Positions 28,557 through 42,049 of a DNA stretch of 64,000 nt are shown here, piece by piece (within the stretch, counting starts at the first letter, position 1; each line of letters starts with the position of its first letter). The DNA is taken from NCBI GenBank assembly GCA_018971305.1, contig JAGXBC010000001.1, positions 173,956 through 237,955 on the forward strand. Reading direction: 5' to 3'. The notes beneath the pieces were generated by a model, which saw only the letters and a list, made by a program, of their open reading frames with translations, made no database searches and had not been told where the DNA came from. The stretch comes from Patescibacteria group bacterium. GTDB taxonomy: Bacteria > Patescibacteriota > Minisyncoccia > UBA6257 > 2-01-FULL-56-20. The position numbers and the translations under genes are program-made.

Positions 28557-29549
28557 ATGAAACCAATTCTTGTTTCCGGCATCCAGACTTCAGGCCGATT
28601 GCACCTTGGCAATTATTTGGGCGCCTTAAAAAATTTTGTTGACCTGCAAAATTCGGGAAAGTACGATTGTTATTTTTTCTTAGCCGACTTACATTCATTA
28701 ACCGAGGCGTTCAATCCAGAAGATAAACATAAACAAGTCATTGAACTGGCCGCGGATTTTCTGGCTGCCGGCCTGGACCCCAAGAAATCCGTTATCTTCC
28801 AGCAATCGCAGGTCCCGGCGCATACGGAACTCGGATGGATTTTCAATACGATTACGCCATTCGGAGAATTAAACAGGATGACACAGTTTAAAGAGAAATC
28901 CGACGCGCAAAAAGAAAATGCGAATGTCGGGCTTTTAACTTATCCCACTCTGATGGCCGCCGACATTCTTTTATATGACGCCAAATTTGTGCCGGTTGGC
29001 GACGACCAAAAACAGCATTTGGAACTCACGAGAACTATCGCCCGTAAATTCAACGCCAAATTCGGCGAAACTTTCACGGAGCCACAACCACTATTTACAG
29101 CAGCCACTCGGGTGATGAACCTTGGCGAACCGGAGCGAAAAATGTCCAAGTCGCGCTCGCATCCACAAAACGTGATTTTCGTTGACGACTCGCCGGAAGA
29201 AATTTCCGCCAAAATAAAATCCGCCGTAACAGACTCCGGCTCGGAGGTTAAGTACGACATCAAAAACAAACCCGCAATAAGCAACTTGCTTACTATCTAT
29301 TCCGCCCTAAGCGGAGAAGCCATCCCTAAACTGGAGAAATATTTCACAGGGAAAAAGTATTCAGAGTTCAAAGTTAAGCTTGCAGAGCTGATATCCGATT
29401 ACTTCGCGGATTACCGCAAGAAGAAAAAGTTATTACTCGCCAAACCGCAGACACTTATAACAACGCTCAAATCCGGTTCAGCCAAAGCGGCAAAAGTTGC
29501 CGACAAAAAGATACACGAAGTTAAAAAAATAATAGGATTGGCGATTTAA
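28557..29549 (+). CDS. trpS: Tryptophan--tRNA ligase
   Basis: 330 aa. Contains GIQTSGRLHLGNYLGA (HIGH-type motif) and KMSKS. Confidence 0.95.
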   Translation: MKPILVSGIQTSGRLHLGNYLGALKNFVDLQNSGKYDCYFFLADLHSLTEAFNPEDKHKQVIELAADFLAAGLDPKKSVIFQQSQVPAHTELGWIFNTITPFGELNRMTQFKEKSDAQKENANVGLLTYPTLMAADILLYDAKFVPVGDDQKQHLELTRTIARKFNAKFGETFTEPQPLFTAATRVMNLGEPERKMSKSRSHPQNVIFVDDSPEEISAKIKSAVTDSGSEVKYDIKNKPAISNLLTIYSALSGEAIPKLEKYFTGKKYSEFKVKLAELISDYFADYRKKKKLLLAKPQTLITTLKSGSAKAAKVADKKIHEVKKIIGLAI

Positions 29550-32500
29550 ATCTTCCTTACAGCCAACCAGGAATCCGCGCCGTTAACCTTCGTTTCCGCC
29601 TCCGCTTCAAATTTTTCCGATTTTTTATATTCTATCGCTTCGGCTCCGACCTCAACTTTCAAAACTTTTTCGTACTTGTAGATTGCGAGACGCACTTCCG
29701 CCGGCAACTGGGCCATCAATATCATTTTATCCTTCGGCTTAAGCCCGGATTTTTGCCGCAGCTCCTGAACGGCCCTTATTATCTCCCGCAATATACCCTC
29801 TTCGCGCAGTTCCGGCGTGACAACGGTATCCAGTTCAATTTCTTCCTTAAATCTGGCACTGAAAACAACTTTCTTAATATTCACCTCTTCTGCTAAAATA
29901 CCAAGCAATTCTTTGGGAATCTTCAGCTTTCCGGTTTTAACCCTGAGTTCACCGAGAGGCTGACGGACTTTTATTCCCGCCTCCGCCCGCTTGGCCAATC
30001 CCAAACTAGCCAAACGCCTCACTTCGGCCATTCCTTCCAGTAATTTAGAATTTTGAGTTTTTAATTTTGGTTTTGTCTCCGGCCAATCTTCCAAATGAAC
30101 TGATTCCTGCGTTCCGTTAAGTTCTCCGTAAAGTAATTCCGAAAAGAATGGTGCGAAGGGAGCTGTTAGTTTCGCCGTTTCACGCAGAACCAAGCCGAGT
30201 GTGGCGCAAGCCGAATCAAAATCCTTGGCGCTCTCCGGTTTTTGCAAGCGCCGGCGCGAACGGCGGATATACCAGCGCGACAGATCGTCAACCAACTTCT
30301 CTATAACAAGCGCGGCTTCTCTTATTTCGTATTTATCCAGGTGCTTTGTGGTATCGGCAACAGTTTCTCCGAGCCGAGACAGAATCCATTTGTCCAGAAC
30401 ATTGGTCGAGGATGGAATTTTATCTCCCGAACTTTTCTCGCTCGCATATGTTTTATAAAATACCAAACTGTTCCAAAGAAGCATGTGCATCCTGCGGTAT
30501 GTTTTCGAAATCTCGTTCTCGTCAAAATTTTTTGTCTCGCCCGGAGGATTCACGGTATAGAAATACCAGCGGACGGCATCAACTCCGTATTTATTGATAA
30601 CCTCCCAGGGGTCAACTATATTCCCTTTGGACTTGGACATTTTCTGCCCGTGCTTATCGTTTATCAGCCCCAAAGAAACAACGTTCTTATATGGCGCCGG
30701 GTATCCCAAAGATGTAGCAACTGCAAGCAGGGTGTAAAACCATCCTCGCGTCTGATCCATTGCCTCCGAAATATAATCTGCCGGATAAGCGCGGCTTTTG
30801 TCTATAGCATCCTCATTCTCAAAAGGATAATGCTGCTGAGCGAAAGGCATTGAGCCGGAATCAAACCAGACGTCAGCTACTTCTTTGACCCGTCCTGTTC
30901 TCGCGCCGCATTGCGGGCAGGCAATATGGATACCATCGGCATATGGCTTGTGCAGGTCTATAACTCCAGTACCATCACGGGGCACTATCTTTAGAGTTAA
31001 CTCTCTTGTTTCAGCTACGCCGATAAAATCCTGGCCACGGCTTATTTTTTCCCGTATAGCGCGTTTTTCATCCCATGCTTCCGCCGCGTGCGTAAGCATC
31101 CAGATCGGATACTCATGGCTCACGAGCAGGATATTCTTGCCGCGGTATTTTTTTTCCAATTCCTGCAAAATTTCCCAAACCCGACTGCGCAAATCGCGCA
31201 GGGACTCGCCTCCTTCCGGCTTGCCCTCAAACTTTGATTCGTATGTGGGAAAAAGCTTATGGTAGCGGCTATCACGGCCCCCCTGAAGCATTGAACCCAA
31301 ATCTACCTCGCGCAGACGTTTGTCGAAAACTACTTTTTTGACGCCCAATGCCTCCGCCGCAATCTCGGCTGTTTCTTTTGTCCGGATTATGTCCGAAGAA
31401 ACGATGACGTCTATTTTTTTTCTGCTGCTTTTTAGTTTCTGCAAAAAATTTTTCGCCGACTTTTCCGCGAGCGAGCGGCCGATAACGGTCAAAGTGTTGT
31501 CTTTAGACCAACCGGAATCAATAAAGTGTTCGGCGTTGCTTTTCGCCTCTCCGTGCCGCATAACCCAATAATTATTCCTGGAACCTCCGGCAAGCTTACT
31601 GAGCTCGTCAATGCCTCCCGCCACTTCGCAGTGATTGCATTTTTTGCATTCCCAGATCGGTAACGGCGTTCCCCAGAACCGTTCACGGGAAAAATTCCAA
31701 TCTTTAACCTCACGCAGCCATTCGCCGAAACGCCCCTGTTTTACGTATTCCGGCGTCCAATTGATTTTATTGTTATTGGCTATAAGCTGCTTCCTTAAAC
31801 CGCTCATGGCTACGAACCAGGAATTTCTTGCGTAATATAGAATTGGCGTGCCGCACCGCCAGCAGTAGGGATAATCATGCTTGTAGGGAAGAACTTTCAG
31901 GAGCGAACCGCGCTGTTTTAAATGTTCAACGATGCCAGCCTCGGTTTCCTTGGACTTCGCGAACAGGCCGGAGAAACCAGAAACGTCCTTAGTGAACTTC
32001 CCAACTTCATCAACCGTGTGATACCTCGGTAAGCCGACTTTAAGTCCCAGCTGATAGTCATCTTCGCCGTACATAACCGCAGTGTGGACTACCCCGGTTC
32101 CCTCTGTCGTATTAACAAAATCGGCGTCGTAAACCTTGTACGAACTTGGCGAACGCAATGCCGGAATTTCAAAAAGCGGCTCGTAGCTCAGGCCGATAAG
32201 TTCGTTCCCCTCAAAAATCTCCCTCAGGTCGGGGGCGGAACCAAAAATAGCGGGATTATTCTTAACGGCTTCCTCAGCTACAATCCAACGCTCTATTTTC
32301 CCGTCAATCATCTTCTTCAGTACGGCGTATTTGATGTTTTTACCAACGGCCAAAGCCACATTTCCTGGGAGCGTCCACGGCGTAGTCGTCCAGGATAAAA
32401 CATACGTATCATCTCCCGCCGAGAAATATCCGCCGATTTTCTGCCCCCTCTTCAATTTGAATTTTATATAAACGGAGTCATCAGTAGTTTCTTTGTAACC

Positions 32501-33076
32501 CAAAGCAAGCTCGTGCGAAGAAAGCGACGTGCCGCAGCGCACGCACCAGGGAACTACCTTATGTCCCTTATAAAGAAGTTTTTTTGTCCAAAAGCGCTTT
32601 ATTATCCACCAAAGAGTTTCTATGTAGGAGCTTTCGTAAGTTATGTAAGGGTCTTTCAGGTCCAGCCAAAAGCCCATCCGTTTTGTGAGGCGCTCCCATT
32701 CGTCTTTGTATTCCCAGACGGACTCGCGGCATTTTTTATTGAAGGCCTCAACGCCGTAGTTTTCAATGTCCTTTTTCGTTTTCAGGCCCAATTGTTTTTC
32801 CACCCCTATCTCCACGGGCAATCCGTGCGTGTCCCAGCCGCCTTTTCTCGGAACCAAATAGCCCCGCATCGCCTTGTAGCGTGGGATTATGTCTTTGAAG
32901 GCACGAGCCAGAATATGGTGCACGCCCGGCCTGCCGTTAGCAGTTGGCGGACCCTCGTAAAATATGAACTTTTTAGCGCCTTTCCGCTTAGCGAGAGTTT
33001 TTGCAAAAATGTCGCTTTCGTTCCAAAATTTCAAAACTTTTTCCTCCTCCTTGGGAAGATTGAATTCTTCGGGCAT
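29546..33076 (-). CDS. ileS: Isoleucine--tRNA ligase (type 2) carrying an inserted histidine-phosphatase domain
   Basis: 1176 aa. Contains PPTANGRPGVHHILARA, the editing-domain segment TTPWTLPGNVALAV, KMSKSKGN and WFDSGSMPFAQ. It appears longer than the type-2 IleRS lengths I recall (from memory, not checked), and the roughly 190-aa insert between the two CxxC knuckles can account for the excess. Confidence 0.95.
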   Translation of the reverse strand: MPEEFNLPKEEEKVLKFWNESDIFAKTLAKRKGAKKFIFYEGPPTANGRPGVHHILARAFKDIIPRYKAMRGYLVPRKGGWDTHGLPVEIGVEKQLGLKTKKDIENYGVEAFNKKCRESVWEYKDEWERLTKRMGFWLDLKDPYITYESSYIETLWWIIKRFWTKKLLYKGHKVVPWCVRCGTSLSSHELALGYKETTDDSVYIKFKLKRGQKIGGYFSAGDDTYVLSWTTTPWTLPGNVALAVGKNIKYAVLKKMIDGKIERWIVAEEAVKNNPAIFGSAPDLREIFEGNELIGLSYEPLFEIPALRSPSSYKVYDADFVNTTEGTGVVHTAVMYGEDDYQLGLKVGLPRYHTVDEVGKFTKDVSGFSGLFAKSKETEAGIVEHLKQRGSLLKVLPYKHDYPYCWRCGTPILYYARNSWFVAMSGLRKQLIANNNKINWTPEYVKQGRFGEWLREVKDWNFSRERFWGTPLPIWECKKCNHCEVAGGIDELSKLAGGSRNNYWVMRHGEAKSNAEHFIDSGWSKDNTLTVIGRSLAEKSAKNFLQKLKSSRKKIDVIVSSDIIRTKETAEIAAEALGVKKVVFDKRLREVDLGSMLQGGRDSRYHKLFPTYESKFEGKPEGGESLRDLRSRVWEILQELEKKYRGKNILLVSHEYPIWMLTHAAEAWDEKRAIREKISRGQDFIGVAETRELTLKIVPRDGTGVIDLHKPYADGIHIACPQCGARTGRVKEVADVWFDSGSMPFAQQHYPFENEDAIDKSRAYPADYISEAMDQTRGWFYTLLAVATSLGYPAPYKNVVSLGLINDKHGQKMSKSKGNIVDPWEVINKYGVDAVRWYFYTVNPPGETKNFDENEISKTYRRMHMLLWNSLVFYKTYASEKSSGDKIPSSTNVLDKWILSRLGETVADTTKHLDKYEIREAALVIEKLVDDLSRWYIRRSRRRLQKPESAKDFDSACATLGLVLRETAKLTAPFAPFFSELLYGELNGTQESVHLEDWPETKPKLKTQNSKLLEGMAEVRRLASLGLAKRAEAGIKVRQPLGELRVKTGKLKIPKELLGILAEEVNIKKVVFSARFKEEIELDTVVTPELREEGILREIIRAVQELRQKSGLKPKDKMILMAQLPAEVRLAIYKYEKVLKVEVGAEAIEYKKSEKFEAEAETKVNGADSWLAVRKI
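30992..31579 (-). other. Histidine phosphatase (PGAM/branch-1) domain embedded in IleRS (about aa 500-695)
   Basis: YWVMRHGEAKSN (RHG motif), VSSDIIRTKETAEI, LREVDLG, GGESLRDLRSRV and ILLVSHEYPIWML (second His). The domain is flanked by WECKKCNHC and IACPQCG. Confidence 0.75.
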
Positions 33077-33103: not shown

Positions 33104-34072
33104 CTATTCAAAAAATCTGCTGCGTATTTTATGGGTATTGCCATGGCTCAAAAGTCCAAGATAAGCGTTAATCGTCGCTGGCGCTGGGTTGGCTATTACC
33201 ATCTTTAACATTCTTCTTCTCGTCGTTGTCCGAAAAACACGGTGATCAGGAAAATTTATCCACCCCAAAAAATCAACTCCGGACGCAATGGTATTTATGA
33301 AAATTTTATTTGGATGAAGCGTAAGTCGCAATTTATTTTCCAAAAATTCTTTTATTTTTGGAACTAGAGATTCCAGCAATCCGCGGTTCTCCGAGAAAAT
33401 AACGAAGTCGTCCGCATAACGTATATAGTGCCTTGTTTTCAGTTTGTGCTTCACAAACTGGTCAAACTCGTTCATATAAACATTTACAAAGAGTTGTGAA
33501 GTGAGGTTGCCGAGCGGTAAACCTTGTCCAGGCGCGCTTGATGAAAAACTCTCGATAACTCTTTCCAGGAGCCGCAGCGTATCAGCGTCTGGGATATATG
33601 AACGTAGAATATCAAGGAGGACGGCGTGGTCGATGTTGGCAAAAAACTTTTGAATGTCACACCTGAGAACCCAGGAGGTACGCGTATTGTTCTTACTAAT
33701 AATGCGGGCGAACGCGCGAAAACGATTCATTGCGGCATGCGTTCCTTTTCCGACTCGGCATGAGAACGAATCAGCTATGAAAGTTTTATCGAAGAACGGA
33801 TAGAGCACCCGGTAGATGGCGTGATGGAGTAAGCGGTCGCGGACGGTTGCCTTGTGGATATTCCGCGGTTTCGGGTCGCAGATGTTGAATGCTTGATACC
33901 CACCGTGTCGGTACGCACCGTTCAAAATATCCGCGCGAAGTGATAGAATGTTATCCATAAGGCGCGATTGGAACTCCTGCACATCACGTTTCCCGCTCTT
34001 GCCGCGCAAAAATTCCCTCCAGGCCTCAAGCAGGTTTTCCACGCTTATGATTTCCTCAAATTTATGAACCAT
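33104..34072 (-). CDS. DGR-type reverse transcriptase
   Basis: The track ORF is 33104..34264. The likely start is MVHKFEEIISVENLLEAWREF at 34072 (323 aa). RT motifs present are NICDPKPRNIHKATVRDRLLHHA, LGNLTSQLFVNVYM (the DGR-typical xGxxxSQ) and YIRYADDFVIF. No maturase or endonuclease domain. Confidence 0.9.
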   Translation of the reverse strand: MVHKFEEIISVENLLEAWREFLRGKSGKRDVQEFQSRLMDNILSLRADILNGAYRHGGYQAFNICDPKPRNIHKATVRDRLLHHAIYRVLYPFFDKTFIADSFSCRVGKGTHAAMNRFRAFARIISKNNTRTSWVLRCDIQKFFANIDHAVLLDILRSYIPDADTLRLLERVIESFSSSAPGQGLPLGNLTSQLFVNVYMNEFDQFVKHKLKTRHYIRYADDFVIFSENRGLLESLVPKIKEFLENKLRLTLHPNKIFINTIASGVDFLGWINFPDHRVFRTTTRRRMLKMVIANPAPATINAYLGLLSHGNTHKIRSRFFE

Positions 34073-34103
34073 CTTAATTTTCACAATAAAAATTTTCAAG
34101 TAA

Positions 34104-34460
34104 CTCCCCCCCCCCCGACACATCACGCTTCCTATCATCCAACACCTGGTAGCGGCGTACAAAACCTGGCATGAATTTCTGCCGCATGTACCCAAGGATG
34201 CGAGATACTCGTTAGGAACTAAGGTCGACGCTTCGTTTATAGAAACGATTGAAGCGGTATTCACCGCAAGCTATCTCAGTAGAGAGAGTAAACTTCCTTA
34301 TCTCGAAAAAGCTGCCGCGAAACTGGACATGGTTAAATTCTTTCTCCAGATAATCTGGGAAGTCAAGGCGCTCGACAATAAAAAATATATTACACTCTCG
34401 GAAAAGCTGGATGAAATAGGCAGAATGCTCGGCGGATGGCTTAGGAAAATGTCTACTTAA
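34104..34460 (+). CDS. avd: Avd-like four-helix-bundle accessory protein (open frame without ATG/GTG/TTG start; possibly joined to ATG 34064 across the C11 tract)
   Basis: Absent from the ORF track. My plus-strand translation is ...RHITLPIIQHLVAAYKTWHEFLPHVPKDARYSLGTKVDASFIETIEAVFTASYLSRESKLPYLEKAAAKLDMVKFFLQIIWEVKALDNKKYITLSEKLDEIGRMLGGWLRKMST*. The FPK-x-x-RY-x-LG and EIGxMLGGW pattern is typical of Avd / 23S-IVS four-helix-bundle proteins. Confidence 0.7.
   Translation, partial: LPPPRHITLPIIQHLVAAYKTWHEFLPHVPKDARYSLGTKVDASFIETIEAVFTASYLSRESKLPYLEKAAAKLDMVKFFLQIIWEVKALDNKKYITLSEKLDEIGRMLGGWLRKMST
34106..34116. repeat. C11 (G11 on minus strand) homopolymer tract at the avd 5' end / RT 5' leader
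   Basis: Read directly: taact ccccccccccc gaca. The tract separates the ATG-containing frame (ATG 34064) from the conserved avd frame by one nucleotide. Confidence 0.95.
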
Positions 34461-34503: not shown

Positions 34504-34624
34504 TTACTCGCGACGCGACCGTTGCGATTGAAGTCGTTGTCAAGCCAGTTCCAGTTCAGGTACCAGCGCTCGCCGTTCTGATTGAGGTAGGGAACGTTCC
34601 GGTTGCCGTTCGCGTTCAGCACGA
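34504..34624 (-). repeat. DGR template repeat (TR)
   Basis: The minus strand reads gtgctgAACgcgAACggcAACcggAACgttccctacctcAATcagAACggcgagcgctggtacctgAACtggAACtggcttgacAACgacttcAATcgcAACggtcgcgtcgcgagtaa. It contains nine AAC and three AAT codons in the VR-equivalent frame and pairs with 34964-35084. Confidence 0.85.
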
Positions 34625-34885: not shown

Positions 34886-34909
34886 TGGGCCCTAACGAAT
34901 TAGGGCCCA
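34886..34909 (-). terminator. GC-rich UUCG-tetraloop hairpin about 50 nt downstream of the VR / target stop (terminator and/or DGR target-recognition hairpin)
   Basis: The minus strand reads tgggccctaa-ttcg-ttagggccca, a perfect 10-bp stem, followed by ttaaattttttt. Confidence 0.6.
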
Positions 34910-34959: not shown

Positions 34960-35580
34960 CTACTTGCTCGCGACGCGACCGTTGCGATTGAAGCCGCAGT
35001 CAAGCCAGCTCCGGCCCAGGTACCAGCGCTCGCCGTTCCGACTGAGGTAGGGAACGTTCCGGTAGCCGTTCGCGTACAGCACGACCAAACCCGGAAAATC
35101 GATGTAAACTTTTCCGAGAAGGGACATGAATACGGGGAATTCATCCTGGTGCTCAACAAGCCAAACGGCCTGCTGGTAACCCAGGACAAGATTCCGGCGG
35201 GACACGAGCCTGCGCTCGTATTCGCTGCCAACGATAGACTTCTCGTCAGAACGCAACAATGTGCCAAGACGGAGAATAACTTCATCGGTTGGCGAAGAGT
35301 CGGACTCGATTTTTTCGATCTGAGAGAACGCCCTGCGGAGTTCCTCGAGTGTCGGCTGCTTCAGGGCTGGAATCCGAACGGCGACATCTTCCATCGTCTT
35401 CCAGAATTCCAACATCTTGATCTCGGCGTTGCCGAGATAGATGTCACGGACGCCTGAAAGGTTGGTGCCGGTTGAAAGCCATTTTACAAAATCGGGCGTG
35501 CAACCATTCCGCTCAAGCGCATGATCGAATTCTGCGGCTTGGCGAGCAAACATGACGGGTTGAGACTTGTCATTAGGCAT
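34960..35580 (-). CDS. DGR variable (target) protein, 206 aa, VR at the extreme C-terminus
   Basis: ORF with a GGAGG RBS (aaaggaggacatgtcATG). The C-terminal ...VVLYANGYRNVPYLSRNGERWYLGRSWLDCGFNRNGRVASK* is encoded by the VR. No signal peptide or TM segment is visible. Confidence 0.85.
   Translation of the reverse strand: MPNDKSQPVMFARQAAEFDHALERNGCTPDFVKWLSTGTNLSGVRDIYLGNAEIKMLEFWKTMEDVAVRIPALKQPTLEELRRAFSQIEKIESDSSPTDEVILRLGTLLRSDEKSIVGSEYERRLVSRRNLVLGYQQAVWLVEHQDEFPVFMSLLGKVYIDFPGLVVLYANGYRNVPYLSRNGERWYLGRSWLDCGFNRNGRVASK
34964..35084 (-). repeat. DGR variable repeat (VR)
   Basis: Aligns to 34504-34624 at offset 460. Inside the core there are 11 mismatches, and 10 of them fall at TR minus-strand adenines (7 A>G, 3 A>T). 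Confidence 0.85.
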
Positions 35581-35600
35581 GACATGTCCTCCTTTTCTAT

Positions 35601-35630
35601 GCGACGTGTTCCAGATTAGGAACGTGTCGC
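35601..35630. promoter_or_regulatory. Imperfect palindrome with duplicated ACACGT upstream of the DGR target gene (candidate operator)
   Basis: The minus strand reads gcgACACGTtcc-taatct-ggaACACGTcgc, located 20-50 nt upstream of the target start codon. Confidence 0.3.
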
Positions 35631-35661
35631 GATGCCACTGGCTCCCCCGATCAAACTGGGT

Positions 35662-35725
35662 TTTGCCATAGCAGAAAACTATCCGATTGCCTAGAGCTTA
35701 TCGAAAGGCTTTCTGCTATGGCAAA
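35662..35725. repeat. Perfect 16-bp inverted repeat with 32-nt spacer between argS stop and DGR target gene
   Basis: tttgccatagcagaaa (35662-77) pairs with tttctgctatggcaaa (35710-25). Confidence 0.9.
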
Positions 35726-35774
35726 TGTAAATAAATCAGGTTTTCAAAGTACGCTACAATTATACACCATATTA

Positions 35775-37475
35775 CTATATTCTGTCAATAGCAGTGATTC
35801 CCAATAAATTCAGCCCTTTTTCTATGATTTTCGCCGTTATATTAATAAGCCCAAGAAGCGCGCTCCGCCGACTGGCGGATTCTTCTTTGAGTACCGGCGT
35901 GGTTTCGTATAAACGGTTAGCCAACACGGCCAGCTTATAAAGATAGTTAGCTAGGTTGCTCGTCTGCAGTGTTTCCCCACTTCGCGCCACTTCGTCGGGA
36001 AATTCAAAAATTTTCCGAGCGAGCGCAAGTTCAACATCAGAATTTAATAATGTAAAGTTCTTGCTTTTAGGTTTTAGAGCTTGGGACTTTCTTAAAATAC
36101 TCTTAAGGCGGGCATACGTGTACTGCAAATACGGCCCGCTGTCTCCGGAAAAATCCAGCATTCTTTTCCAGTCAAAAACGATGTCGGTTGTGCGTCCCTC
36201 CCGCAAATCATTGTATTTCAAGGCTCCAACGGCAACCGCCTCAGCGATTTTATCTTTTTCTTTAGCCGATAATTCTTTATTTTTTTCTTCAACAATCTCC
36301 CTCGCCAGCTTGATAGCCTTACCTAAAACCTCTTTAAGTAATATGGTCCTCCCTTCGCGTGTAGCGAGCTTTTGGCCGCTCTCCCCTAGAACCAAACCGT
36401 ATTTAACGTGCTTGAGTTCAACCCCATCGGCCAATCCAAGAATATTAGTTATGGCGAAAAGCTGTTCAAAGTGCAGAGATTGTTCGTTGCCCACAACATA
36501 TAAAATTTTCTCCGGCTTATATTTTTTGACACGGTATTCAATATTCGCAATATCGCGCGTAAGGTAAAGGGATGCTCCATCCGCTTTTTCTATTAACGCC
36601 GGAGGCAGATTGAACTTATCTAGTTTTATAACTATCGCGCCCTCGCTTTTTACGGCGACGCCGTCTTGCACAAGGCGCGAAACAAGCGGCTTCATATCTT
36701 TCTCAAAAAAGCTTTCGCCTTTCCATTCGTCGAACTCTACACCGAGCTCTTTATATGTTCTCTCGAATTCTTTAAGCGATTCTTTTTTAAACCATTGCCA
36801 AAGCTTGCGGTTTTCCTTATCGCCTTCTTCTAATTTTTTGAATTCTTCCTGGCCCTCCAGCTCCAATCCCGGGCGGGACTTCATCTCGTCGTGAAAGCGG
36901 ACGTAGAGCTTCTGCAATTCCTCTATTGGTTTTTCTTCTATCTTTTTCTTATCGCCCCACATTTTATAGGCGGCGATAAGTTTGCCGAACTGCGTCCCCC
37001 AGTCGCCCAAATAATTCCAGCGGATAACTTTATATCCCAGTGATTCAAAAACATTGGCAAGCGCCGCGCCGATTATCGTTGTCCGCAAATGGCCCACGTG
37101 CATCATCTTCGCGATATTCGGCTGAGAATATTCAACGATAACGGTTTTGCTTTTTCCAATACTTCTCTCGCCATATTTTTTTATATTCTTGGTAACCATG
37201 GCCAATTCGTTTTGCAGCGCTTCAGGTGAAAACCAAAAGTTTATAAATCCCGGCGCAGCGGCTTCAACTTTTTGGAAAAACCCAGCCGGCGCAGCGGCAC
37301 TAATTTTCTGCACCAATTCCCTGGCCAGTTCAAGAGGATTTTTCTTTTCCCGCTTAGCCAAAACCATAGCCAAGTTCGTGGAATAATGGCCGAAGTTTTC
37401 TTGTTCCGGAACTGTAACGCTAAAATCTCTGCCATCGGAAAACTCGGATAAAATTTTTATTATCTTATCTTTCAT
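35775..37475 (-). CDS. argS: Arginine--tRNA ligase
   Basis: The ORF is 35775..37502. The probable start is MKDKIIKIL. Contains SQPNIAKMMHVGHLRTTIIG (HIGH-type motif), the DALR anticodon-binding C-terminus and the terminal ...ITAIDRI. Confidence 0.95.
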   Translation of the reverse strand: MKDKIIKILSEFSDGRDFSVTVPEQENFGHYSTNLAMVLAKREKKNPLELARELVQKISAAAPAGFFQKVEAAAPGFINFWFSPEALQNELAMVTKNIKKYGERSIGKSKTVIVEYSQPNIAKMMHVGHLRTTIIGAALANVFESLGYKVIRWNYLGDWGTQFGKLIAAYKMWGDKKKIEEKPIEELQKLYVRFHDEMKSRPGLELEGQEEFKKLEEGDKENRKLWQWFKKESLKEFERTYKELGVEFDEWKGESFFEKDMKPLVSRLVQDGVAVKSEGAIVIKLDKFNLPPALIEKADGASLYLTRDIANIEYRVKKYKPEKILYVVGNEQSLHFEQLFAITNILGLADGVELKHVKYGLVLGESGQKLATREGRTILLKEVLGKAIKLAREIVEEKNKELSAKEKDKIAEAVAVGALKYNDLREGRTTDIVFDWKRMLDFSGDSGPYLQYTYARLKSILRKSQALKPKSKNFTLLNSDVELALARKIFEFPDEVARSGETLQTSNLANYLYKLAVLANRLYETTPVLKEESASRRSALLGLINITAKIIEKGLNLLGITAIDRI

Positions 37476-37866: not shown

Positions 37867-38310
37867 ATGAAAACAATCGCGGAAAACCGCCGGGCGCGGT
37901 TTGACTATGAAATATTGGAAACAATGGAAGCGGGCGTGGAGCTGCGCGGTTTTGAAGTTAAAAGCGCCAAAGCAGGAGGTTTTAATCTGGCTGGAAGCTA
38001 CGCTATTCTGAGAAACGGGCAGGCCTGGCTTATTAACTCTCAAATTCCACCATATCAGCCCAAAAACACTCCGGATGGCTATGATCCCTCCCGCTCTCGC
38101 CGCCTGCTCTTACACACATCGGAAATCATCTCCTTGGCAGGAAAACTTAAAGATAAATCGGTTCACCTGATTCCATTACGTACTTATATAAAAAATAATT
38201 TGGTAAAGATTGAACTCGGACTTGCGCGTTCACGAAAAAAATCCGACAAGAGGGAACTTATTAAAAAGCGCTCCGCAGAAAGAGAAATGATGCGGGCTAC
38301 CTCAAGGTAA
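37867..38310 (+). CDS. smpB: SsrA-binding protein SmpB
   Basis: 147 aa. Contains IAENRRARFDYEILETMEAGVELRGFEVKS and a basic C-terminal tail. Confidence 0.95.
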   Translation: MKTIAENRRARFDYEILETMEAGVELRGFEVKSAKAGGFNLAGSYAILRNGQAWLINSQIPPYQPKNTPDGYDPSRSRRLLLHTSEIISLAGKLKDKSVHLIPLRTYIKNNLVKIELGLARSRKKSDKRELIKKRSAEREMMRATSR

Positions 38311-41720: not shown

Positions 41721-41732
41721 CAATTCTGTGTC

Positions 41733-42049
41733 GGTGGAGATGGGCGGAATTGAACCGCCGTCTAAGGATTGCGCCGCTGAACCATCTACGAACGTATTTC
41801 AGTTAAGAACTGAACAAAAGCGATTCTAATTTTCGCTCCAATGCAGAATCATCCATCGGAACTACGCCTCCTTATATAAGACCGGTATTAACCTAAGAGG
41901 TCCAGATTAGCCGATCCTCCGGTGTTACGCGTAAGCGAATGCCGGAGCCGCAACTTTTGAGTTGGCAGTTATTGTTTTTTCGCGAGTTTAACGAGTCCGC
42001 CCTCGGTCCGCAAATTCAGAACGCATCCTTATCGAAGCCGATCATCCCC
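41733..42049 (-). ncRNA. ssrA: tmRNA (ssrA), about 317 nt, predicted tag ANSKVAAPAFAYA
   Basis: The 5' end GGGGATGATCGGCTTCGA pairs with the 3' end ...GGTTCAATTCCGCCCATCTCCACC, including a G3:U pair. The tag frame is ...aaaaaacaataact GCC AAC TCA AAA GTT GCG GCT CCG GCA TTC GCT TAC GCG TAA (41966..41925), which parallels the E. coli resume context. Confidence 0.85.

Follow-up and report, generated by a model that had tools for sequence, protein, structure and literature searches.

What does a diversity-generating retroelement (DGR) diversify if its target protein carries no recognizable signal for leaving the cell? This question is raised by a locus of a Patescibacteria group bacterium (assembly GCA_018971305.1) within a stretch of 64,000 nucleotides (nt) of contig JAGXBC010000001.1 (positions 173,956 to 237,955 of the forward strand, hereafter the window), where a DGR acts on a gene for a small protein of 206 amino acids (aa). 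Patescibacteria are unusually rich in DGRs, whose targets are assumed to serve the attachment to host cells, but the commonest Patescibacteria targets have no export signal, a discrepancy that has been noted in the literature (PMC8144416). The reading that we favor, with a probability of roughly 0.6, is that the target belongs to a Patescibacteria-type DGR as its variable protein and constitutes a soluble, cytoplasmic, stand-alone diversified binding module with a lectin-like fold.

The cassette is a complete DGR, and within the window it has no target besides the 206-aa open reading frame (ORF), as a second variable repeat (VR) was searched for elsewhere in the window and not found. The VR covers aa 167-204 of 206, i.e. 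the 3' end of the target coding sequence, and matches a template repeat (TR) over 118 nt with 11 mismatches, ten of which lie at TR adenines (hypergeometric P = 1.9e-6, with 29 A in 118 nt; coordinates of all features are given in the table). Both repeats share the invariant GC-rich 3' end GGTCGCGTCGCGAG, beyond which the sequences diverge, as in an initiation of mutagenic homing (IMH) element. Within aa 167-204, 17 codons bear TR adenines (11 AAY codons and 6 with a single adenine), no stop codon can be reached from them, and about 3.5e16 protein variants are possible. In 51 relatives, it is precisely at the codons with TR adenines that the column entropy rises, to 2.5-3.4 bits, and the low-entropy residues G172, R174, G183, R185, W186, W190, W192, G201, R202 and A204 form the scaffold. 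Motif 4 of the type [I/L]GxxxSQ and the motif YxDD are hallmarks of DGR reverse transcriptases (RTs). The RT of the cassette contains LGNLTSQ (aa 186-193) as well as YADD (aa 219), matches Pfam RVT_1 with E = 1.6e-23, and is 53-69% identical to the RTs of related cassettes. TR-containing RNA and this RT, both encoded downstream of the target, would diversify the VR at the template adenines. The identification as DGR target, which had been made in a preliminary description of the locus from the letters alone, is thus borne out by the VR in the last ~38 residues, by the adenine-specific mismatches and by the adjacent RT.

Where does the target begin? The protein that had been described is the exact translation of the ORF, and it is identical to a hypothetical protein (KGJ89_01050) of a Patescibacteria metagenome-assembled genome (MAG), encoded there on a contig of 320 kb. 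Its ATG at 35580 is preceded at a distance of 7 nt by the Shine-Dalgarno sequence (SD) AAGGAGG, and close homologues use the same initiator Met (MPND.../MTND...). The start cannot be moved upstream: there is an in-frame stop 39 codons 5' of the ATG and no ATG, GTG or TTG in between, so that no signal peptide can be gained by extending the ORF in the upstream direction. The peptide that this 39-codon stretch would encode is non-hydrophobic in any case, and the stretch overlaps a structured leader (see below). The NCBI annotation begins at M10 (197 aa), which has no consequence for the conclusions.

Does the protein carry any signal that would direct it into or across the membrane? Localization signals were judged by heuristics for hydrophobicity, charge, lipobox and RR motifs, and by these scans no lipobox, no twin-arginine (Tat) motif, no signal peptide and no transmembrane (TM) helix is detectable in the target. 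The longest hydrophobic run in aa 1-60 is VMFA (four residues), and aa 1-30 contain three positive and five negative charges. The sole 19-residue Kyte-Doolittle window above 1.6 is located at residues 150-168, which is the conserved buried beta-strand segment VFMSLLGKVYIDFPGLVVL of the core domain. As positive controls, clear signal or TM segments were detected by the same heuristics in other ORFs of the window and in four relatives, and therefore the absence of a signal in the target is real at the sequence level. The scan included about 315 relatives of two families, which we here name type A (the family of the target) and type B (the P0066-like family, see below), and about 190 of the 194 type-A and all 121 type-B relatives have neither a signal nor a TM helix. 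The preliminary description of a small protein without signal peptide, lipobox or TM helix hence applies not only to the target, but to ~98-99% of these relatives. As there is no export or anchoring signal, it is likely, albeit unproven, that the target is soluble and stays in the cytoplasm.

What kind of protein is this target? No family of Pfam or NCBIfam is found at E <= 1, including FGE-sulfatase, DUF1566 and other known VR-bearing Pfam families, and there is no match in PADLOC or PHROGs. A family hidden Markov model (HMM) finds no relative among PDB sequences but only spurious matches to designed repeat proteins, and Foldseek returns nothing significant from the PDB. In an exhaustive HMMER search, the family nevertheless comprises 370 clusters at 50% identity, all of them uncharacterized metagenomic proteins and none with a Pfam match. 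The earlier statement that the N-terminal ~160 residues match nothing therefore stands for Pfam, NCBIfam, PADLOC, PHROGs and PDB sequences, but not for metagenomic proteins. The conserved unit of this family corresponds to query residues ~58-204. About one third of the relatives consist of this unit alone, with 20 or fewer residues ahead of it, and about half have an N-terminal extension of 40-80 residues.

An AlphaFold2 model that was calculated with the family alignment has a mean predicted local distance difference test (pLDDT) score of 90.5, with residues 61-206 at 94-98. In this model, the N-terminus forms helices at 12-24, 29-36 and 40-48 (pLDDT ~77-83). The core then proceeds with a strand (68-70), a helix (78-84), a hairpin (88-107), three helices (118-126, 135-143, 149-152), and the C-terminal strands 159-161, 165-169, 174-182, 185-192 and 201-205. 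The target would thus be composed of a three-helix module of ~55 aa and one compact, minimal domain (aa ~60-206) that resembles C-type lectins (CLec). The last strands and loops of the core would carry the variable positions, and the IMH-like end of the VR would encode the invariant final strand (GRVA). Residues 187, 189 and 191 of strand 185-192 are variable and alternate with the conserved W186, L188, W190 and W192, a pattern that would suit a strand with one exposed face. The preliminary description had proposed another layout, in which a separate N-terminal domain of ~150-160 residues is followed by a short lectin-like VR module at aa ~150-206. Residues 1-160 are indeed matched by no sequence family, but the model and the family alignment contradict this layout, as both give a single domain of ~60-206 that includes the VR. 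Only ~55 residues remain for a separate N-terminal part, and about one third of the family is the core alone, so that the earlier layout can hardly be correct. The ~105 residues ahead of the VR, in the region 60-166, are most plausibly understood as scaffold of a lectin-like fold that is minimal and highly divergent, rather than as a domain of their own. The model is inconclusive with regard to CLec membership of the core, but consistent with it. A divergent CLec scaffold also fits the remark that uncharacterized VR-overlapping domains in the Candidate Phyla Radiation (CPR) are probably new CLec variants (Roux et al. 2021, PMC8144416).

The N-terminal module also occurs in type B. Residues 1-57 of the target are 72-79% identical to the N-termini of three proteins (P0066, P0068, P0069) whose C-terminal domains differ. 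The first of these represents type B, a family of ~195-aa proteins without Pfam match and with members in Minisyncoccia, Paceibacterota and Liptonbacteria, for which 1870 clusters at 90% identity were found, as compared to 69 for the type of the target, found in the same way. Every aligned type-B member bears the N-module, with the consensus ...QAxELxxAFxRxGxTxxxxKxLxEGxxLAxVRxVLLGxAEIK, whereas the C-terminal domain has a sequence that differs from that of the target (...YIFFWGTIYRxSDGxLxVRxLYWxGGxWxW...PAALRAS). A comparison of the two family profiles without the N-module gave a probability of 61% over 66 columns, with the type-A profile (A2) built without type-B sequences. At the nucleotide level, window positions 35674-35413 (leader and codons 1-56) are 85% identical to the corresponding region of a type-B target on a different Patescibacteria contig (L005:5908-6168). 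This similarity stops exactly at the boundary between module and core (aa ~56), and the rest of the gene is much more divergent; RT and Avd of the two cassettes share just 68-69% protein identity. Because the similarity ends at the module/core boundary, we regard the target gene as a mosaic in which a type-A core follows a type-B 5' part, which agrees with the modular recombination that has been proposed for DGR targets (PMC8144416).

Which observations weigh against a cytoplasmic, actively diversified binding module? With regard to localization, the call is a prediction from hydrophobicity heuristics. Moreover, two relatives (P0152 and P0164) have classic Sec signal peptides directly ahead of the core domain, and therefore this domain can work outside the cell. 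These two proteins fit the alternative that the target is exported or displayed in a non-classical way, be it by leaderless secretion, by docking of the N-module to a pilus or S-layer, or by lysis, and that it serves host-cell attachment. The best-studied lectin-fold variable proteins, Mtd and TvpA, are extracellular and thus also count in favor of an export. Reviews assign the DGR targets of CPR and DPANN organisms to host attachment as well (PMC10221324; PMC6349945). On the other hand, the near-complete lack of signals among the relatives contrasts with the ease with which canonical signals are recognized in this genome, and only avd and RT are conserved as neighbors across loci, with no secretion or pilus gene. 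Two further relatives, P0037 and P0131, have TM helices. According to its inferred topology, the two TM helices and the Cys-rich segment of P0037 would leave the domain on the side of the N-terminus, which also argues against a display. We therefore consider such an export rather unlikely, although it is the strongest competitor of the cytoplasmic reading.

The other points on the negative side concern the current activity of the cassette. The avd gene is recognized by Pfam bAvd (E = 4.7e-7), but this match falls on the C-terminal 43 aa. The frame is broken at a C11 tract (34106-34116): there is a stop just ahead of the tract, and the first ATG, GTG or TTG thereafter leaves only 43 aa. An ATG at 34064 is shifted by one base relative to this frame, and with a C10 tract it would yield a full-length Avd. 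In related cassettes, tblastn matches to avd are 53-71% identical over 115 aa. The only difference between TR and VR that does not concern an adenine (T to C at window position 35013) changes codon 190 from the TGG of the TR to an Arg codon. This W190R exchange affects a scaffold residue, which is Trp in 45 of 51 relatives, and may reflect either a damaging mutation after homing or an error of the RT at a non-adenine position. Population variants of the VR were not found either: only identical copies were found in the protein collection, and exact-DNA scans of JGI metagenomes with the VR-flanking sequence and with the TR gave no match. Together with the frequent loss of DGRs in the family, these findings would be in line with a cassette that is switched off or decaying and with a target that is a frozen variant, a state that is compatible with the other explanations. 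In 18 genome loci with type-A homologues that were examined, the full cassette in the order target-TR-avd(antisense)-RT is found seven times, two loci have only C-terminal RT remnants, and nine have no RT within the available sequence; the full order also occurs in L003/L004, L005, L026 and L028. For the cassette in the window, an inactive or decaying state is nonetheless improbable, as its RT ORF is uninterrupted and retains the catalytic motifs, none of the 11 AAY codons of the TR has been lost, and the TR/VR differences are adenine-specific but for the one mentioned.

The avd tract itself also speaks against a decay. A C8-C12 homopolymer is kept at the 5' end of avd in all ten related cassettes (L003, L005, L008, L009, L013, L020, L022, L025, L026, L028). 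Relative to the upstream ATG, four loci have the tract in frame, whereas six, the window among them, have it out of frame, and such a conservation with mixed frames agrees better with a reversible switch or an assembly error than with decay. The tract may be a switch that controls mutagenesis by slippage or phase variation, may result from errors of assembly, or may serve as a G-tract in the DGR RNA. In all cassettes that were examined, avd runs antisense to the TR-RT transcript. The 5' end of avd overlaps the RT start by 9 nt. A literature search found no paper that mentions this poly-C tract.

What precedes the target gene is conserved as well. The leader of ~170 nt folds with a minimum free energy of -65.6 kcal/mol (z = -6.0) and contains three hairpins: a long one (UUGCCAUAGC...GCUAUGGCAA), a small one, and hairpin 3 (GCGACACGUUCC...GGAACACGUCGC), which lies directly 5' of the SD. 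It is conserved upstream of ten other targets of both families. A covariance model that was built from five loci detected, in 315 kb of searched sequence, weaker copies whose ends coincide with the start codons of six further type-A targets, and nothing else save the reverse strand of the palindromic hairpin; no Rfam family matches the leader. In hairpin 1, aligned from 11 loci, 88% of cells are paired, as compared to 37-52% with slid partners, and compensatory changes occur in 13 of 22 pairs. The covariation is 0.53 versus 0.24 in shuffles, and none of 500 shuffles reaches the observed value. G-U pairs in hairpin 1 favor an RNA hairpin on the sense strand. According to the leader match in L003, the annotated 256-aa P0042 would in fact start at Met48.

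How could a protein of this kind function? From the consensus promoter and the strong SD, it appears that the target would be well expressed. As no effector domain is fused to it, its output would have to result from binding alone, i.e. by sequestration or blocking, or from a partner that is recruited in trans. The conserved and exchangeable N-module might recruit such a constant partner, which is speculation. As possible ligands within the cell, the preliminary description had suggested molecules of a host or partner, or components of phages. One may go further and view types A and B together as a large repertoire of small cytoplasmic hypervariable binders, in which the N-module couples the captured ligand to the constant partner, giving an antibody-like intracellular recognition of, e.g., phage proteins or host-derived molecules, with the leader controlling expression and the poly-C tract in avd gating diversification. 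As a whole, this more elaborate proposal is doubtful, and we regard it as a tentative extension of the cytoplasmic reading.

The family records are mostly named Patescibacteria, Parcubacteria and Saccharibacteria, with a few other MAG labels, and no relatives of the target were found in IMG/VR viral contigs. Parcubacteria Gr01-1014_30 has two target paralogues in one genome (L001/L019 6001-6609, and L014). The first lies between argS and smpB beside a Y1 transposase, with no RT or TR nearby, and its surroundings resemble the ileS, argS and smpB neighborhood of the window; the second adjoins a C-terminal RT remnant only. The target family thus evidently outlives its DGR. In the P0042 cassette (L003/L004 6907-7245), the TR lies within an ORF of 112 aa. 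At 29% identity (E = 1.6e-7), this ORF matches residues 105-206 in the C-terminal half of the target, which suggests that this TR was derived from a duplicated target fragment. In the window, the match to the target is limited to the 40 TR-encoded residues.

The features of the locus are compiled in the table. The GC-rich hairpin listed as terminator is also a possible DGR homing hairpin. Near the cassette, a tmRNA gene (41732-42049, minus strand; Rfam 121 bits) and smpB (37867-38310, plus strand) make up an ordinary housekeeping context. The argS ORF as listed opens at TTG, which results in a hydrophobic MLFILFLMVM prefix, whereas translation probably begins with the Met of MKDKIIKIL. The hydrophobic segment that the signal scan flagged at the N-terminus of argS is an artefact of the ORF definition. 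The isoleucyl-tRNA synthetase encoded by ileS has 1176 aa, and its catalytic domain is interrupted by a histidine-phosphatase domain (His_Phos_1, residues 504-675, E = 4e-29). In locus L001 of a related genome, a His_Phos_1 gene was called as a separate ORF that adjoins ileS.

Table. Features of the DGR locus in the window, and leader copies upstream of related targets (locus:positions).
Feature	Position	Strand	Basis or remark
argS	37502-35775	-	5' neighbor of target
Target promoter TTGACA-18-TATAAT	35759..35788	-	12/12 consensus matches; overlaps argS 3' end
Structured 5' leader of target mRNA	35581..35752	-	folding, covariation
Leader hairpin 1	35725-35662	-	covarying
DGR target (variable protein), 206 aa	34960..35580	-	ORF, identity to KGJ89_01050
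N-terminal three-helix module (predicted), aa 1-56	35413..35580	-	model, alignment with type B family
Core domain (predicted), aa 59-206, compact alpha/beta, C-type-lectin-like, VR inside	34963..35406	-	
VR, aa ~167-204	34967..35084	-	repeat comparison with TR
GC-rich hairpin and T-run, ~55 nt 3' of VR	34886..34909	-	intrinsic terminator of target
TR, 118 nt	34507..34624	-	11 AAY codons and 6 single-adenine codons
avd (bAvd-like accessory protein)	34064..34460	+	antisense to TR-RT transcript; Pfam bAvd
DGR reverse transcriptase, 322 aa	33104..34072	-	RVT_1, LGNLTSQ, YADD
ileS	29546-33076	-	after RT on minus strand
Leader copies	L005:5864-6003, L026:3861-4003, L028:3868-4003, L027:3858-4003, L003:6004-6144		
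Leader copies	L014:5911-6036, L020:5727-5849, L017:3907-4025, L015:4352-4499, L011:5726-5812		

The locus thus represents a complete example of a signal-less target. Its start is defined, the gene has a consensus promoter and a terminator of its own, and the minimal binding domain of ~145 aa is modelled with confidence. As the target is part of two families that together count thousands of members, the question of localization becomes directly testable. If the target truly is cytoplasmic, hypervariable recognition would be aimed at the inside of the cell, which would change the view of DGR function in episymbionts. Apart from that, its small size makes the core domain interesting as a scaffold for diversification.

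How does this target compare to known systems? Mtd of the Bordetella phage BPP-1 is a phage tail-fibre protein, and TvpA of Treponema denticola is a surface lipoprotein; both are variable proteins with a CLec domain of the FGE type. In comparison to these, the domain described here is much smaller (~145 aa), has no FGE-sulfatase Pfam match, and comes with no signal or lipobox. The premise of the preliminary description that DGR targets are displayed on the outside is outdated in view of several studies (PMC8144416, PMC7517822, PMC10907252). Most cyanobacterial variable proteins are predicted to be cytosolic (Vallota-Eastman 2020, PMC7517822), and cytoplasmic targets are predicted in the STAND and MoxR systems of Thiohalocapsa (Dore 2024, PMC10907252). 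Like the target described here, these are DGR-diversified proteins with a lectin fold, which is putative for the target, and with a predicted cytoplasmic location, but they are large and have kinase, STAND NTPase or MoxR-associated signaling and NTPase domains, or are encoded in conflict-system operons. The 206-aa target, in contrast, is stand-alone, has no effector domain and no PADLOC match, and is accompanied by avd and RT only. It also differs from the commonest architecture that has been reported for CPR, a fusion of CLec with an AAA ATPase (Dore 2024, citing Paul 2017; PMC10907252), as it has no ATPase.

Among small variable proteins, AvpA of Nanoarchaeota comes close. It is a monomeric single-domain protein, and its crystal structure revealed a divergent CLec fold that is unpredictable from the sequence, with an invariant last strand encoded by the IMH (Handa 2016, PMC5006420). 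Our target shares with AvpA that it is a single-domain variable protein of an ultra-small organism, with a fold that cannot be recognized by sequence and a putatively IMH-encoded last strand. The best correspondence exists with the clade-2 targets of CPR (Paul et al. 2017, Roux et al. 2021), with which it has in common the host group, the kind of cassette, the C-terminal VR, and the lack of a TM helix, a signal and a recognizable domain. For Patescibacteria clade 2, it has been stated that targets typically have no TM or other domains, "as previously reported", and whether they truly are non-membrane proteins was left open (Roux et al. 2021, PMC8144416). The target is therefore no new kind of system, but a clean instance of this known class of signal-less CPR targets.
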